Source of the DNA: Escherichia coli
GTDB taxonomy: Bacteria > Pseudomonadota > Gammaproteobacteria > Enterobacterales > Enterobacteriaceae
Strand: one strand, 5' to 3'
Assembly: GCF_003334765.1 (NCBI RefSeq)
Contig: NZ_QOWT01000001.1
Length of the DNA stretch: 64,000 nucleotides
Part shown: positions 15,462-61,783 of the stretch, one piece after another
Layout of the letters: each line of letters opens with the position of its first letter
Position numbering within the stretch: the stretch's first letter is position 1
Position numbers and translations under genes: made by a program
The notes under the pieces: generated by a model
The model's input: only the letters and a program-made list of their open reading frames with translations
Told to the model about the DNA's origin: nothing
Database searches by the model: none

Positions 15462-15529
15462 ATAAGCGCCGGATGGGGTAGAAACCCTTAAGCCTGTGTC
15501 GCACAGACTTAAGGGTTTTCTTATTTCTG
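15462..15529 (+). ncRNA. Candidate small RNA (possibly RydB) or intrinsic terminator; extent and strand uncertain
   Basis: Perfect 11-bp stem AAACCCTTAAG (15483-15493) / CTTAAGGGTTT (15509-15519) followed by a T-rich tract. RydB is reported in the ydiH-sufA intergenic region, but I could not confirm its sequence from memory. Confidence 0.3.
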
Positions 15530-15747
15530 AACGCTGCACTTTTTTACCTATCTCTTAAATAGTCATTTTCAATACAACTTTTTCTTTTTCATCACAGCCT
15601 TAATGCTCCTTAGATAATAACCATTATCTAACAATGAGATACCTAATTCTTAGCGTGCCTGTTAACCCACACATCAGGGTCTATGCTTATTAAAAGCAGG
15701 CAAAAAGCATGTTTTACGGTAAAGCCCCTGCGTTTGCTGGGTTGAAC

Positions 15748-54643: not shown

Positions 54644-55540
54644 ATGGTTCAGCGTATTACTATTGCGCCGCAAGGCCCGGAGTTTTCCCGTTTTGTGATG
54701 GGCTACTGGCGATTGATGGACTGGAATATGTCCGCCCGCCAGCTGGTCAGTTTTATTGAAGAGCATCTGGATCTCGGCGTGACCACCGTGGACCATGCTG
54801 ATATTTATGGTGGCTATCAGTGCGAAGCGGCGTTTGGCGAGGCACTGAAACTGGCACCTCACCTGCGTGAACGGATGGAAATCGTCAGTAAATGCGGTAT
54901 CGCGACGACCGCGCGTGAAGAAAACGTCATTGGTCATTACATCACTGACCGCGATCACATCATTAAGAGCGCCGAACAGTCGCTAATTAATCTCGCGACC
55001 GATCATCTGGATTTGCTGTTAATCCACCGACCAGACCCGTTAATGGATGCCGATGAAGTGGCGGACGCGTTCAAACATCTGCATCAGAGCGGCAAAGTGC
55101 GTCATTTTGGCGTATCGAACTTTACGCCTGCGCAATTTGCCCTGTTGCAATCACGTCTGCCGTTTACCCTTGCCACTAATCAGGTGGAAATATCCCCGGT
55201 GCATCAGCCGTTACTGCTGGATGGCACGCTCGACCAACTACAACAACTGCGTGTTCGTCCGATGGCGTGGTCCTGCCTTGGTGGTGGTCGTCTGTTTAAT
55301 GATGATTATTTCCAGCCGCTGCGTGATGAACTGGCTGTGGTGGCAGAGGAGTTAAACGCGGGCTCGATTGAACAGGTGGTTTACGCCTGGGTATTACGTT
55401 TACCATCGCAGCCGCTGCCAATTATCGGTTCAGGTAAAATTGAGCGCGTACGGGCAGCTGTCGAAGCAGAAACACTGAAAATGACCCGTCAACAATGGTT
55501 TCGTATCCGTAAAGCGGCACTGGGGTACGACGTACCGTAA
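54644..55540 (+). CDS. ydhF: Aldo-keto reductase family oxidoreductase
   Basis: 298-aa ORF MVQRITIAPQGPEFSRFVMGYWRLMDW…. Confidence 0.88.
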   Translation: MVQRITIAPQGPEFSRFVMGYWRLMDWNMSARQLVSFIEEHLDLGVTTVDHADIYGGYQCEAAFGEALKLAPHLRERMEIVSKCGIATTAREENVIGHYITDRDHIIKSAEQSLINLATDHLDLLLIHRPDPLMDADEVADAFKHLHQSGKVRHFGVSNFTPAQFALLQSRLPFTLATNQVEISPVHQPLLLDGTLDQLQQLRVRPMAWSCLGGGRLFNDDYFQPLRDELAVVAEELNAGSIEQVVYAWVLRLPSQPLPIIGSGKIERVRAAVEAETLKMTRQQWFRIRKAALGYDVP

Positions 55541-55620
55541 GCACTTTTAGGAATAGCCGCCGTTCAAAAATGTGTCACTGGTTTACACTTATTCAGGAAT
55601 GCACAATGAACGGAGGTCCT

Positions 55621-56142
55621 ATGAAACGTTTTAGTCTGGCTATTCTGGCGCTGGTTGTTGCAACCGGCGCACAAGCTGCCAGTGAAAAAGTCGAGATGAA
55701 CCTCGTCACGTCGCAAGGGGTAGGGCAGTCAATTGGTAGCGTCACCATTACTGAAACCGATAAAGGTCTGGAGTTTTCGCCCGATCTGAAAGCATTACCC
55801 CCCGGTGAACATGGCTTCCATATTCATGCCAAAGGAAGCTGCCAGCCAGCCACCAAAGATGGCAAAGCCAGCGCCGCGGAATCCGCAGGCGGGCATCTTG
55901 ATCCACAAAATACCGGTAAACATGAAGGGCCAGAAGGTGCCGGGCATTTAGGCGATCTGCCTGCACTGGTCGTCAATAATGACGGCAAAGCTACCGATGC
56001 CGTCATCGCGCCTCGTCTGAAATCACTGGATGAAATCAAAGACAAAGCGCTGATGGTCCACGTTGGCGGCGATAATATGTCCGATCAACCTAAACCGCTG
56101 GGCGGTGGCGGTGAACGCTATGCCTGTGGTGTAATTAAGTAA
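55621..56142 (+). CDS. sodC: Periplasmic Cu,Zn superoxide dismutase
   Basis: ATG at 55621 gives MKRFSLAILALVVATGAQA… (signal peptide) with His-rich Cu/Zn ligand motifs (HGFHIHAKG…); 173 aa. Confidence 0.93.
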   Translation: MKRFSLAILALVVATGAQAASEKVEMNLVTSQGVGQSIGSVTITETDKGLEFSPDLKALPPGEHGFHIHAKGSCQPATKDGKASAAESAGGHLDPQNTGKHEGPEGAGHLGDLPALVVNNDGKATDAVIAPRLKSLDEIKDKALMVHVGGDNMSDQPKPLGGGGERYACGVIK

Positions 56143-58155
56143 TTAAGAGGCCAGCGTACCTTGCGGTGGTGCTTGCTCAAGTTGCGAAAGCGAGCAGTAC
56201 AGCCGCCAGACAATTGCCGCCAGCTCACGGGCGGCAGGTTGATGATGACGGGCAAGGCTGTCGCAAATCCGCTGTAATTCTTCAAGTGTGGCCGCCAGTG
56301 ATTTTTGCTGAACGCCACGCTCACTCATCACTCCCCGCAACAGTGAAATACAGTTATCCCGTACTCGCGATAACGGATCGGAACGCGATTCCCAGTCGCG
56401 CAATTGCCAGACAACATGAGAACAGTTCAGCAGCACTACACCCCAGCGTAATAACCAACGGCGAGCCAGCGCATCCTGGCTGTTACTCAACTGACTGACG
56501 TGATGATAAGTGAGCGATTCAAATTCGCTTTCACTCAGTGTTGGATGGCGGCTTAGCTGATCGACAAAATCCCGGCGCAGCGCGCGAATATGGCGGCGGC
56601 TTTTACGAGCATCCGATCCTGGACGCAGAATGGCGAACGCTAACCACGCCAACGCGACGCCAACGATTTTTGCCAGATTATCGTTAAGAAAATCAGCAAA
56701 ATCATACACCGGGGGATTAGTGACAGCGATAAAAGAACCCATAAAAACAATCAGTTGCCCCCACAATGCGGCAAATTTTGGCATCTGCAATTTAAGAAGC
56801 TGCATTGTCGCCAGCAGTGGAAAGAGAAACAGTAAAAATTGCCACAGATCGCTAATCTGGACCATCAGACCAAATTTGACCACAAAGCTGAATAGCGAAA
56901 GTAACACCAGCGTGCGCATCAGAAGTGACAACGACTTAAACGGTGCTGCGACGGCGGAGTAGAGTACGCAGCTAATTGCTGCCAGCGTTAATGCATTGGC
57001 ACCGGCATCCCATTGCGAAGCAATACTCCATGCGCCAATCATCATCAACGTACAAAATGTACGCAGCCCGCTCCACATAGCTTCGGCGTTATCGGTATGA
57101 CGAGCCAGGCCGGATGTCCGTGGGAGTCTGGTATGATCATCTACACCGCTTTGCAGACGATGTAATTCCTGACTACTTTGCAGATAAAGGCGGCAAAAAT
57201 AACGTAGTCGCTGCCAGAAGGCGACGTGCCGATAGTCGGCGACGTTGGTCGGGCGTAGCGGGGCGATAATACGTGCGACGGTGTAAACATCTGTTTGCGA
57301 ACTGGCGAGCGCCGTCAGCAACTGTTCGAGAATTTCTCGTGTGGCACCTGGCGGTGAGGGCCAGTTGAGCAACATACGTCGCAGGCTGGAGATGACACTG
57401 GTCATACGTAATTGCTGGTGGAGCAGCGCATTAAGGCGCGCGTTTTGCTGGCGAAAACGATAGTGGCTCCAGAAAGCCTGGATACGCAGCAAATTCATGG
57501 TCAGTATCTGCCCAATCACCCCTTCATGTGCTGCACGAATGGCATCGGTTGTTTCAGGCTGCCAGAGTAAACTGGCATGTTCCAGTAATCGGGCGTGCAT
57601 GTTTTTCAATGCGGTTAAAAGGGCAGTAGCATCGGAACTGCTCGGCAGGATCATCATCATCATGCCGCCGCACAAAATACCGACTATTACCTCGCAAACG
57701 CGCGCCTGAGCGATATCCCACAGCTGGCTGGCCTCAGTAATATTAACCATCGGAAAGGCGATGATGGCAGCCGTGTAGCCCGCCAGTTGAAATGCATACG
57801 CGACGTTATTCGTGAAGTGCGCACAGGCCCAGGTACAAAAGCCAAGCCACGCCGACATGCTCAATAGAAAAAACCACGGCTCATTGAGCGTATGCCCGGC
57901 AAGAAGCAGTGCCGCAATGGCTCCGAGCAAACTGCCAGCGATGCGTCCGAGGCTTTTGCTGATAACACCGCCAACGGTGGGAAAGCTAACCACTGCAGCC
58001 GAGGTCATCGCCCAATAGGGTTCATCCAGATTTAAATAATAGGCAACCGTCAGCGCCAGACACATGGCAATGGTATTGCGTAACGCATAACGCCATTGCG
58101 CCAGCGTGGCCCTGAACCAGGGCAAATTGCGCAAGGACCATGACGATGCGTTCAT
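56143..58155 (-). CDS. ydhK: FUSC/AaeB-family membrane efflux protein
   Basis: 670-aa polytopic ORF; its start overlaps the ydhJ stop by 1 nt. Confidence 0.85.
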
Positions 58156-59012
58156 TATTGACCTACGGCAATGCTACAGGTGGTGCCCGACACCAACGTG
58201 ACATCGCCTGGGACTTTATCCAGCGCAAAGCGGACGGGAACGCGTTGGGCGAGTCGAACCCAGGGGACGTTAGGTTTAACATCCGGAATAAGGCTTGAGT
58301 CACTTTCAACGCTCTGATCATAAATCGCCCGACCGATACTGGAAACGTGACCCTGTAACGTTTTGTTATCACTATAGAGGGTAATTTGTGCTGGTGCACC
58401 TTCGCGGATATGGCGCAACTTGGTTTCTTCAAAATAACCAATGACGTAAAACGAGTGGCTGTCGACAAGGGCAAACAGCGGTTTCCCGGTATCAGCGTAA
58501 TCGCCGATGCGGGTAGTAAGGTTAGTCACCCATCCACTCACCGGGGCGCGAATTTCCGTTTGCGCCAGTTGCCATTGTGCCTGTTTCAGCGTCGCCTGTG
58601 CGGCATCAACACTGGCCTGCATCGCTTTAACATTGAGGTTAGCGGTATCGAGTTCTTCGGCAGAAATAAAATTTTGTGAGAGATGACGACGACGATTCGC
58701 TTCGTTATTGGCTTTTGCGAGGTCAGATTGCGCTTTCGCCAGCTGAGCCTGTGCGTTCAGCTCGGCGATCTGAAAGGGCGTTTTATCGATCGTGAGCAGA
58801 AGATCCCCCGCGTTAACCAGCTGGTTGTCTTTTATATTCAGCTCAACAATACGTCCCGACACCTGTGGGGTGATAGAAACCTGTTCTGCGCGTATTTTCC
58901 CGTCGCGTGTCCACGGAGATTGCATGTAATAATTCCACAGCCACCATCCGGCAAGAACCGCAACTACCGCTACAATGATTGTTGAGAAATACTTAATTGT
59001 TTTAATTGACAT
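58155..59012 (-). CDS. ydhJ: HlyD/AaeA-family membrane fusion protein
   Basis: Start at the [17 protein letters not shown]… Met (59012), 285 aa; single N-terminal TM plus coiled-coil. Confidence 0.85.
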
Positions 59013-59014
59013 AG

Positions 59015-59251
59015 TTACCACGCAATCAGTATTGCCAGAGCAAGGCAAACGCAAATCGCAAACAGCGATAAATCCATTAACAAGGGATGCCAGATGTCAC
59101 CGGCGTAGATCCAGCCACGAAGCAGGCGGTGTACGACAAGCCAGATGACGAATCCAAACGCGAATGCTTTGAAAAACGGAGGAAAGTAGACGGACGCACC
59201 GAACACCAGATCTTGTAAGGGCAATCCTGTTGCATTGAGCATAAACTTCAC
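59015..59251 (-). CDS. ydhI: DUF1656 small membrane protein
   Basis: 78-aa hydrophobic ORF immediately upstream of ydhJ. Confidence 0.75.
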
Positions 59252-59451
59252 AAAGTAGATTCCTTTACGACCGAATATATTGCGTTAGATTAATAAATAT
59301 TCTTTAAGTGCGAAAAATTTACGCGCAATTTCTGAAAAATATGTCTGACGGTAACCAAATGCAGCAATACATTTGTTTTAGCAATACAATTGCTGCACAC
59401 TATTCTAAAAGCCGCATAATATCTTAGCAAGCTAATTATAAGGAGATGAAA

Positions 59452-59886
59452 TTGGAATCGCCACTAGGTTCTGATCTGGCACGGTTGGTGCGCATATGGC
59501 GTGCTCTGATAGACCATCGCCTGAAACCGCTGGAGTTAACACAAACCCATTGGGTTACGTTACACAATATCCATCAGTTACCTCCAGACCAGTCGCAAAT
59601 TCAACTGGCAAAAGCGATTGGCATCGAGCAGCCATCACTGGTCCGTACTCTGGACCAACTGGAAGAAAAAGGGTTAATTTCGCGTCAAACTTGTGCCAGC
59701 GATCGTCGGGCTAAACGTATTAAACTGACGGAAAAGGCAGAGCCGCTGATCAGCGAAATGGAAGCTGTTATTAACAAAACCCGCGCGGAAATATTACATG
59801 GCATCTCCGCAGAGGAACTGGAGCAACTGATTACGCTCATCGCAAAACTTGAGCATAATATCATTGAGTTACAGGCCAAAGGGTGA
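59452..59886 (+). CDS. slyA: MarR-family transcriptional regulator SlyA
   Basis: (M)[41 protein letters not shown]…; I chose the TTG at 59452 (6 nt after the AGGAG RBS) over the track's ATG at 59446. Confidence 0.88.
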
Positions 59887-59932
59887 AATGAAGGGGGCGT
59901 GTGGTCAGTAACCTGACCACACGCAAACTTAT

Positions 59933-60400
59933 TTAGCGCGGAGAAACGGTCACCTGACTGCCATTGCTGGCCAGTACGACACGTTGGCCCGGAGAGAAAC
60001 GAGTGTTGCCTTGTTTCTGTACCACCATGATGGTATTACCATCGTCTTTACGAATTTCCAGCTCGACACCCTGCGTTTTGTTCATTGCACTCTGTACGCC
60101 CTGACCAGCTACGCCACCTGCAACAGCGCCTGCTGCAGTAGCCAGAGAACGCCCGGTTCCGCCACCAACAGTATTCCCCAGGAAACCACCAAGAACAGCA
60201 CCGCCAATTGCACCGATAACGTTGGAATCATCACCGCCCTGAATCTGTACCGGACGTACGTTAACGATGGTGCCATAGCTGACATTCTGTACTTGTTTCG
60301 CTTCAGAAGCGGTATAAACATCCCCTGACAGGGTGTCGTTATTAACACAACCGACAAGAGACAGACCTACCATTGAAACAACCAATACGCGTTTAATCAT
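59933..60400 (-). CDS. slyB: Outer-membrane lipoprotein SlyB (glycine-zipper)
   Basis: 155-aa ORF with a lipobox (LVGC) and a Gly-rich segment (GAIGGAVLGGFLGNTVGGGTG). Confidence 0.9.
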   Translation of the reverse strand: MIKRVLVVSMVGLSLVGCVNNDTLSGDVYTASEAKQVQNVSYGTIVNVRPVQIQGGDDSNVIGAIGGAVLGGFLGNTVGGGTGRSLATAAGAVAGGVAGQGVQSAMNKTQGVELEIRKDDGNTIMVVQKQGNTRFSPGQRVVLASNGSQVTVSPR

Positions 60401-60673
60401 TGAAAAATCTCCTGTTCACCATGAAACGCCACGCAAGCATCCCTCATGGTCAAAGTATATGGCATATGTGAATCCATGGTTACATGTTCTACCAAATATG
60501 AGCAAATCATAATGAAAGTAGGATCAACCAATTATAAACAAAACATTCATGATGATTATTGATTTGAAGATAATGTTTTACTACCAACGGTAAAAATCGG
60601 TCATTCCGCATGGTATTCACGAAAAGTTTATGTTTGAGTGGTGCGCAAACGTCAGATTGAAAAAGGATGAACT

Positions 60674-61783
60674 ATGAAATCGGGCCGCTTTATTGGCGTT
60701 ATGTCAGGCACCAGCCTTGATGGTGTTGATGTTGTGTTGGCGACAATTGATGAACACCGGGTCGCACAGCTGGCAAGTTTGAGTTGGCCGATCCCGGTAT
60801 CTCTGAAACAGGCTGTACTGGATATTTGCCAGGGCCAGCAGCTTACACTTTCGCAGTTTGGACAGCTTGATACTCAACTCGGGCGACTTTTTGCTGATGC
60901 GGTCAATGCCTTGCTTAAGGAACAAAATCTGCAGGCAAGAGATATAGTTGCGATCGGTTGTCACGGTCAAACCGTCTGGCATGAACCGACGGGCGTGGCA
61001 CCACACACTTTACAGATTGGCGATAACAATCAAATTGTGGCACGCACCGGAATTACGGTTGTCGGTGATTTTCGCCGTCGCGATATTGCCTTGGGAGGAC
61101 AAGGCGCACCGCTGGTACCTGCGTTCCATCATGCGCTGCTGGCTCACCCAACCGAGCGACGAATGGTGCTCAATATTGGCGGCATCGCCAATCTGTCACT
61201 GCTCATTCCTGGGCAGCCGGTTGGGGGCTACGATACCGGTCCTGGTAACATGCTGATGGATGCCTGGATCTGGCGTCAGGCCGGTAAACCTTACGATAAA
61301 GATGCCGAGTGGGCACGGGCGGGTAAAGTTATTCTCCCACTGCTGCAAAATATGCTCAGCGACCCGTATTTCTCGCAACCTGCACCGAAAAGCACCGGAC
61401 GCGAATACTTTAACTATGGTTGGCTGGAGCGCCATTTGCGCCATTTTCCGGGTGTTGATCCCCGAGATGTGCAGGCGACACTGGCAGAACTCACCGCCGT
61501 GACCATTTCTGAACAAGTTTTGTTGAGCGGTGGCTGCGAACGATTGATGGTATGTGGTGGAGGTAGTCGTAATCCGCTACTCATGGCGCGTCTGGCGGCA
61601 TTACTGCCAGGCACAGAAGTCACCACCACCGATGCCGTTGGCATTAGTGGCGATGACATGGAAGCATTGGCTTTCGCCTGGCTTGCCTGGCGGACGCTGG
61701 CGGGATTACCAGGAAATCTGCCTTCCGTCACTGGCGCAAGCCAGGAGACGGTACTGGGGGCTATTTTCCCCGCTAACCCGTGA
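60674..61783 (+). CDS. anmK: Anhydro-N-acetylmuramic acid kinase
   Basis: 369-aa [30 protein letters not shown]…. Confidence 0.92.

Follow-up and report, generated by a model that had tools for sequence, protein, structure and literature searches.

The slyA-ydhIJK locus of Escherichia coli comprises the gene of the MarR-family regulator SlyA and, in divergent orientation, three genes for a predicted efflux system, the two transcription units being separated by a short AT-rich control region. The locus was analysed within a stretch of 64,000 nucleotides of contig NZ_QOWT01000001.1 (assembly GCF_003334765.1), hereafter called the window, to which all coordinates refer. In E. coli K-12, ydhIJK is annotated as an operon next to slyA, and both control by SlyA and a resistance phenotype have already been described for it. 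The genes are listed below; the three ydh genes were taken from the RefSeq annotation and a list of open reading frames (ORFs), and slyA from the annotation.

56143-58155, minus strand: ydhK, 670 amino acids (aa), inner-membrane transporter of the FUSC/ArAE family, Transporter Classification (TC) 2.A.85.1.6
58155-59012, minus strand: ydhJ, 285 aa, periplasmic adaptor (membrane-fusion protein)
59015-59251, minus strand: ydhI, 78 aa, DUF1656 protein, GTG start
59452-59886, plus strand: slyA, 144 aa, MarR-family regulator, TTG start

The segment 55000-60500 of the window matches E. coli K-12 MG1655 at 100% identity and was found in all complete E. coli genomes (5426 of 5426), in 5410 of which at least 80% of its length is covered; the gene set is real and conserved far beyond chance. 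In NZ_CP091756.1, NZ_CM128543.1, and NZ_CP025048.1, transposase genes of the IS3 family or of ISApl1 lie inside the matching stretch, which there aligns in two pieces, with ydhJ and ydhK among the listed features. Coupling of the three genes through junctions of 1-2 nt, which an earlier note on this DNA had pointed out, is borne out by the sequence: ydhI and ydhJ are separated by a gap of 2 nt (TGG TAA ct ATG), and ydhJ and ydhK overlap by 1 nt, the stop codon sharing a base with the start codon (CAA TAATG AAC). The GTG start codon of ydhI is preceded by AAGGA 9 nt upstream. For ydhJ, the mechanically derived ORF (58155-59054, minus strand) begins with a TTG at 59054, 14 codons ahead of the annotated ATG at 59012, and overlaps with ydhI. 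The annotated ATG is preferable, since AaeA aligns with the 285-aa form from its residue 6 onward.

SlyA matches the NCBIfam equivalog model NF002926 with 277.4 bits (cut-off 120) over model positions 1-143 of 144. Two start codons come into consideration for its gene: an ATG at 59446 from the ORF list, which leaves a spacer of 194 bp to ydhI, and the annotated TTG at 59452, which leaves 200 bp. The Shine-Dalgarno sequence AAGGAG (59440-59445) directly abuts the ATG and is located 6 nt before the TTG, and an ATG is missing at the corresponding position of the orthologous locus L005 (SlyA identity 79%); spacing and missing ATG together make the TTG the better-supported start. Of the earlier description of slyA as divergent from ydhI across an AT-rich region of 194 bp, the divergence and the AT-richness (31.5-32% GC in the spacer vs 50.1% in the whole window) therefore hold, whereas the length has to be revised to 200 bp.

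Within this region, TTAGCAAGCTAA, which we take to be the SlyA consensus of Stapleton et al. 2002, occurs as the sole exact (zero-mismatch) match in the 64-kb window. The following features were assigned:

59252-59451, 200 bp: slyA-ydhI divergent control region, defined by composition, a 14-species alignment, and a published electrophoretic mobility shift assay (EMSA)
59424-59435: SlyA box TTAGCAAGCTAA, exact consensus palindrome, 16 nt upstream of the slyA TTG
59402-59430, minus strand: sigma-70 promoter-like site toward ydhI (TTGCTA, 17 nt, TAGAAT), from a promoter scan
59285-59309, minus strand: pattern match resembling a sigma-E promoter (ACTT, 16 nt, TCTAA), located about 30 nt upstream of the start codon of ydhI

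The box contains the -35 hexamer of the ydhI-directed site, which agrees with the sigma-70 consensus in 9 of 12 positions and may function as the ydhI promoter. Toward slyA, CATAAT (59415-59420) as -10 and TTGCTG (59390-59395) as -35 element, 19 nt apart, might form a weak candidate promoter. Because the box overlaps the ydhI -35 hexamer and adjoins the start of slyA, one bound SlyA dimer could damp both genes; the layout suggests that it would occlude the ydhI promoter and at the same time sit at the start of the slyA transcript. An inverted-repeat scan of the spacer yielded only an AT-rich palindrome at 59290-59307 and did not report the 12-bp box. When 55000-61000 was compared with Rfam at a permissive threshold, a single sub-threshold chance match resulted, and the spacer contains neither a riboswitch nor a small RNA.

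A pattern of 21 specified bases from the block containing the box was searched in 100,044 species genomes and matched in 14 Enterobacteriaceae species, in each of them adjoining slyA, with ydhI on the opposite side in 13 of the 14; ydhJ and ydhK are likewise found opposite slyA in these 13 species wherever the locus reaches them. The exact TTAGCAAGCTAA is present at the same place beside slyA in the 14 species representatives and in L005. In an alignment of 14 spacers (from 13 species of the pattern scan plus L005 and the window), the approximately 85 bases on the slyA side are conserved across genera, including the CAAAACAAATGTATTGC block and TAGAAT, both of which lie outside the search pattern; the -10 element is kept as TAGAAT or TAGACT in all 14. 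The approximately 100 bases on the ydhI side are variable, only AAAGGA and the GTG start codon being kept (13 of 14 spacers). A conserved slyA side and a variable ydhI side agree with the published account of cis-regulatory divergence.

The family labels proposed for the three proteins (DUF1656 protein, HlyD-like adaptor, FUSC pump) are confirmed by Pfam and NCBIfam matches. YdhI matches DUF1656 (E 1.8e-14) and has two membrane helices predicted from hydropathy. YdhJ contains the Pfam domains HlyD_D23, CusB_dom_1, Biotin_lipoyl_2, and HlyD_3 and matches TIGR01730 with 135.2 bits (cut-off 94.9); its lipoyl half-motifs (residues 45-76 and 150-182) flank a hairpin of about 73 residues, and a single hydrophobic membrane helix is located at the N-terminus (hydropathy peak at residues 8-26). 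YdhK matches the FUSC family PF04632 over model positions 1-658 of 660 (E 5.4e-140). In pairwise comparison, YdhI and AaeX share 33% identity (E 1e-5), YdhJ and AaeA 41% (E 5e-68), and YdhK and AaeB 24% (E 1e-27). The possibility that ydhIJK is the AaeXAB system itself was considered and rejected: the equivalog models NF008615, NF007850, and NF007916 for AaeX, AaeA, and AaeB gave 21.4, 243.4, and 120.3 bits against cut-offs of 82, 400, and 870, and the true aaeXAB genes are located elsewhere in the same genome. Since all three scores are far below the equivalog cut-offs, YdhIJK is a paralogue and not an orthologue of AaeXAB.

Relatives of YdhK were sought among 1.84 billion representative proteins, and 3092 representative clusters were found at E values up to 0.001. 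Generic FUSC relatives are 20-30% identical, and the YdhK clade is narrow, since no more than a handful of the full-length representatives share over 35% identity with YdhK. The orthologue in L005 (62% identical) is encoded in a locus that has kept both the SlyA-DUF1656-adaptor-FUSC layout and the exact SlyA box. The relative P0002 (50% identical; loci L006-L008) belongs to an adaptor-FUSC module without a divergent MarR gene. On two of its three contigs (L007 and L008) a gene of the LysR family is located downstream; a DUF1656 gene was called upstream on the L006 contig alone, where argininosuccinate genes are also found upstream. These loci suggest that this transporter family has seen exchanges of its regulators.

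An AlphaFold2 model of YdhK, built on 87 sequences, is confident (predicted local distance difference test (pLDDT) 93.9, predicted template modelling score (pTM) 0.91) and contains two blocks of bundled helices, with long helices after each. The two halves can be aligned with each other by hhalign (residues 19-198 vs 358-538, probability 95.5%, E 1.4e-8); BLASTP between them gave no match, and the repeat is thus visible only in profile-profile comparison. According to structure comparison of the model, each half has the protomer fold of the plant ALMT anion channels, with a sequence identity to ALMTs of 14-16%, and the cytoplasmic helical domains match PhoU-like bundles. A PDB sequence search with YdhK revealed no solved bacterial FUSC structure and gave a marginal match to ALMT12 (E 0.4). 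Judged from the predicted structure, YdhK is an internally duplicated pseudo-dimer, that is, a fused pair of ALMT-anion-channel-like halves. Because the kinship of FUSC and ALMT proteins is already recognised in Pfam and TCDB, this fold backs existing knowledge and does not add to it.

The fold raises the question of how transport would be driven. YdhK might be a channel-like pathway through which anions are released along the membrane potential, as in plant ALMTs, rather than a proton-coupled pump. Such a pathway would fit the absence of a significant MFS, RND, or ABC fold match for YdhK, and its internal repeat would stand in for the two subunits of an ALMT homodimer. However, a fold similarity does not fix the mode of coupling, the sequence identity is low, energised trans-envelope pumps typically have a periplasmic adaptor of their own, and no transport measurements for bacterial FUSC proteins were found in the literature searched. 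We therefore regard a channel-like YdhK as possible, though on balance unlikely.

The interplay of SlyA with the intergenic region has been studied experimentally in several enteric bacteria. Binding, which the earlier note had proposed to examine by footprinting, is known from an EMSA in which SlyA retarded the slyA-ydhI fragment (200 bp) of E. coli K-12, the apparent Kd being about 50-100 nM (PMC5797941). Purified SlyA of Salmonella repressed slyA 5.3-fold and ydhI about 19-fold in vitro, and repression was relieved by 2 mM salicylate (PMC6401476). SlyA also represses ydhIJK in vivo in Salmonella, as determined by RNA-seq, and is inhibited by 4-hydroxybenzoate and 2,3-dihydroxybenzoate (PMC12506092). 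In Klebsiella, mutants of the SlyA orthologue KvrA showed YdhJ levels increased 45-fold to >100-fold (bioRxiv 10.1101/845925). A phenotype of the operon with an aromatic acid, which the note had likewise proposed to look for, was described for Salmonella: in the presence of 30 ug/ml fusaric acid, growth of ydhIJK and slyA ydhIJK mutants was delayed and slyA mutants grew better (PMC6401476). The reading of the locus as an efflux module thus finds support both in the family assignments and in the published work on SlyA and fusaric acid. The remark that the substrate was unknown no longer applies to fusaric acid, for which a substrate phenotype exists in Salmonella, but still does to the physiological substrate; the authors of PMC12506092 regard what YdhIJK does physiologically as still to be determined.

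A second input, which the earlier note had omitted, is control by sigma-E. The operon is treated as a member of the sigma-E regulon, and after sigma-E induction its RNA remains about 20-fold above baseline (PMC2685091, PMC7075262); activation of the promoter by sigma-E was described as weak, and a start site is listed as PydhIJK (PMC7075262). None of the three genes is named in the main text of PMC1312014. In addition, overexpression of ydhK lowers viability (PMC2685091). From these data one might suppose that YdhIJK mainly serves in envelope stress, for example by removing an endogenous or envelope compound, and that its link to SlyA and aromatic compounds is secondary or ancestral. The regulon listing, the extent of the RNA increase, and the toxicity of ydhK speak for this supposition, and the authors of PMC12506092 think that the primary substrate is an unidentified endogenous compound. 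It is countered by the described weakness of promoter activation and by the alignment, in which the SlyA box is the feature conserved across genera and the ydhI-proximal sigma-E-like match was found only in Escherichia. The sigma-E-like pattern itself is not enriched over shuffled sequences, occurring twice in the window at an expectation of 2.08. We consider a predominantly envelope-stress function rather unlikely. The other match to the pattern (ACTT-N15-17-TCTRA), at 15507-15530 on the plus strand between ydiH and sufA, most likely arose by chance.

Taken together, the locus is explained best, and with high probability, as a translationally coupled FUSC/ArAE exporter operon that is paralogous to AaeXAB and controlled by SlyA and sigma-E. 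According to this scheme, a SlyA dimer bound to TTAGCAAGCTAA in the shared control region would block the promoter-like site directed toward ydhI. Salicylate, 4-hydroxybenzoate, or 2,3-dihydroxybenzoate would bind to SlyA and release it from the DNA, whereupon ydhIJK would be transcribed and then translated as a coupled unit. YdhK, as a single chain of two ALMT-like halves, would pass aromatic carboxylate anions across the inner membrane, with YdhJ as the predicted membrane-anchored periplasmic adaptor and YdhI presumably as a small accessory subunit with two helices. The exporter would thereby remove anions of the type that act as SlyA ligands, fusaric acid being the one shown example, and under envelope stress the second, sigma-E-dependent input would raise the ydhIJK transcript level. 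To this scheme belong, as we infer, a specificity for such anions in K-12, a route through the outer membrane, and some form of energy coupling.

Several points weigh against this explanation. The promoters are candidate sites, assigned by their match to a consensus, and the sigma-E-like motif is not counted as evidence, because the pattern is no commoner than chance. No gene for an outer-membrane factor is annotated in or beside ydhIJK, and for the paralogous system, too, the outer-membrane partner is written as 'AaeAB-?' (PMC8277102). The fusaric acid phenotype is a growth delay observed in Salmonella, neither in K-12 nor in a transport assay (PMC6401476), and with respect to aromatic carboxylate transport by YdhIJK, our literature search found this growth phenotype only and no transport assay. 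The linkage of slyA and ydhIJK has been described as weak outside the core enteric cluster, and in Intestinirhabdus alba (L014) ydhIJK is absent: after sodC come the part of the spacer near slyA, which includes the SlyA box, and then slyA itself.

The most direct objection concerns the sign of regulation, since overproduction of SlyA in E. coli K-12 increased ydhIJK transcripts 2.2-fold (PMC5797941), in conflict with the strong repression found in Salmonella and Klebsiella; for K-12 the sign is not settled. SlyA might accordingly act in K-12 mainly as an activator of ydhIJK that counters silencing of the AT-rich spacer by H-NS, all the more as the operon was flagged as H-NS-associated in the same study, the spacer has a GC content of 32%, and SlyA is a known countersilencer (PMC6401476). 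Yet purified SlyA represses ydhI 19-fold in a system without H-NS (PMC6401476), the operon is repressed by SlyA in vivo in Salmonella (PMC12506092), KvrA of Klebsiella represses YdhJ 45-fold to >100-fold (bioRxiv 10.1101/845925), and in the alignment these genera hardly differ in the box and the sequence around it. Activation by countersilencing as the main role of SlyA at this operon therefore appears quite improbable to us, and repression relieved by aromatic ligands is preferred.

The I. alba locus is a clean case of operon loss with retention of the regulator. In the interval 134-816 of L014, 134 bp of the slyA-proximal spacer are kept, and the other 547 bp between sodC and slyA have no match to E. 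coli ydhIJK DNA. Repeated loss of the operon in Enterobacterales is one of the observations from which it could be argued that ydhIJK is essentially cryptic in K-12, being silenced, duplicating the function of AaeXAB and other pumps, and offering nothing on which selection could act. It is in line with this that a K-12 phenotype of ydhIJK was not found in the literature search, that ydhK is listed under TC 2.A.85.1.6 as 'uncharacterized' among orphan transporters (PMC10971958), and that insertion sequence (IS) elements are present within the matched stretch in a few E. coli strains, as mentioned above. On the other hand, the region is present in every complete E. coli genome and intact in nearly all of them, the proteins are 71-86% identical across genera, and ydhK was among the candidate fitness genes in a systemic-infection screen of uropathogenic E. 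coli (UPEC). A cryptic operon is thus very improbable, and we retain the view of a functional exporter.

As for the surroundings, ydhIJK is neighboured by sodC on one side and by slyA and slyB on the other. The stop codon TAA of sodC (56140-56142) directly abuts the minus-strand TAA of ydhK (56143-56145), so that any terminator must lie within the opposite gene; the same junction without spacer is found in Citrobacter and Raoultella loci, and ydhK-sodC is contained in a list of convergent 'excludon' pairs (PMC12288877). At the other end, a terminator scan revealed the following feature:

59897-59924: hairpin resembling a terminator (stem of 12 bp), between slyA and slyB, which are convergent

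With eight GC pairs in the stem the hairpin is strong, and it looks like a bidirectional terminator shared by slyA and slyB.

Because binding by SlyA, repression, and the fusaric acid phenotype have already been published, the original observation is correct but ordinary. What is added here concerns the SlyA box, which is the only exact one in 64 kb, overlaps the promoter-like site directed toward ydhI, and recurs next to slyA in 14 species of Enterobacteriaceae, and the confident model of YdhK as a fused pair of ALMT-like halves. A more far-reaching idea would be that YdhK is a bacterial pseudo-dimeric counterpart of ALMT that releases endogenous aromatic carboxylates electrophoretically, not by proton antiport, and, together with SlyA and its ligands, forms a feedback valve. 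If this were true, YdhK and SlyA would set the intracellular level of SlyA's own ligands (4-hydroxybenzoate and 2,3-dihydroxybenzoate), and the YdhIJK valve would tune the SlyA-dependent countersilencing of virulence genes; we think the idea doubtful. An electrogenic anion flux by YdhK would, moreover, bear on the whole FUSC family, including AaeB and the fusaric acid pumps of plant-associated and pathogenic bacteria.

Among known systems, AaeXAB (yhcRQP) is closest. As the earlier note had stated, the layout of ydhIJK mirrors that of aaeR-aaeXAB, which in the same genome shows the order DUF1656 protein, adaptor, and FUSC protein with a divergent regulator gene. All three proteins are homologous, no outer-membrane gene is linked to either operon, and both are associated with aromatic carboxylates. 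The regulator AaeR, however, is an activator of the LysR type, whereas SlyA is of the MarR type, and the junctions of aaeXAB are gaps of 7 and 5 nt in place of the 2-nt gap and 1-nt overlap in ydhIJK. The known substrates differ as well, being p-hydroxybenzoate (pHBA), 6-hydroxy-2-naphthoate, and 2-hydroxycinnamate for AaeXAB and fusaric acid for YdhIJK (PMC12506092). The fusaric acid systems of Burkholderia and Stenotrophomonas (FusC/FuaABC and the 'tetrapartite' pump Bucl8-FusCDE) also combine a FUSC protein with a small DUF protein and an adaptor, and they share with YdhIJK the resistance to fusaric acid and the induction by aromatic carboxylates (PMC7682875); in contrast to ydhIJK, they possess their own outer-membrane factor and a reported LysR regulator. 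MdtNOP (yjcRQP) resembles YdhIJK in having an adaptor and a FUSC-type inner-membrane protein encoded by genes with a 1-nt overlap, but it has an outer-membrane factor of its own, MdtP, and the lipoprotein YtcA instead of a DUF1656 protein. YdhJ shares 33% identity with MdtN in an alignment that has 62 gap positions in YdhJ, most of them in the region of the helical hairpin, and YdhK and MdtO are only weakly similar (E 6e-6 over 198 aa).

With respect to regulation, the locus follows the marRAB/emrRAB paradigm, in which a dimer of the MarR family binds to a palindrome in a divergent or autoregulated control region and is released by ligands, aromatic carboxylates such as salicylate serving as inducers (PMC6401476). 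It departs from this paradigm in that SlyA has been recruited as a global countersilencer of H-NS, that the linkage to the pump is gone in many lineages, and that the pump is of the FUSC type and not of the MFS or RND type. The plant ALMT/QUAC proteins, finally, handle organic acid anions, as YdhK is proposed to do, and their protomer fold, a membrane helix bundle with a cytoplasmic helical domain, is predicted for each half of YdhK; the ALMTs are homodimeric channels of a single unit, whereas YdhK is a fused tandem repeat that is accompanied by an adaptor and a small subunit.

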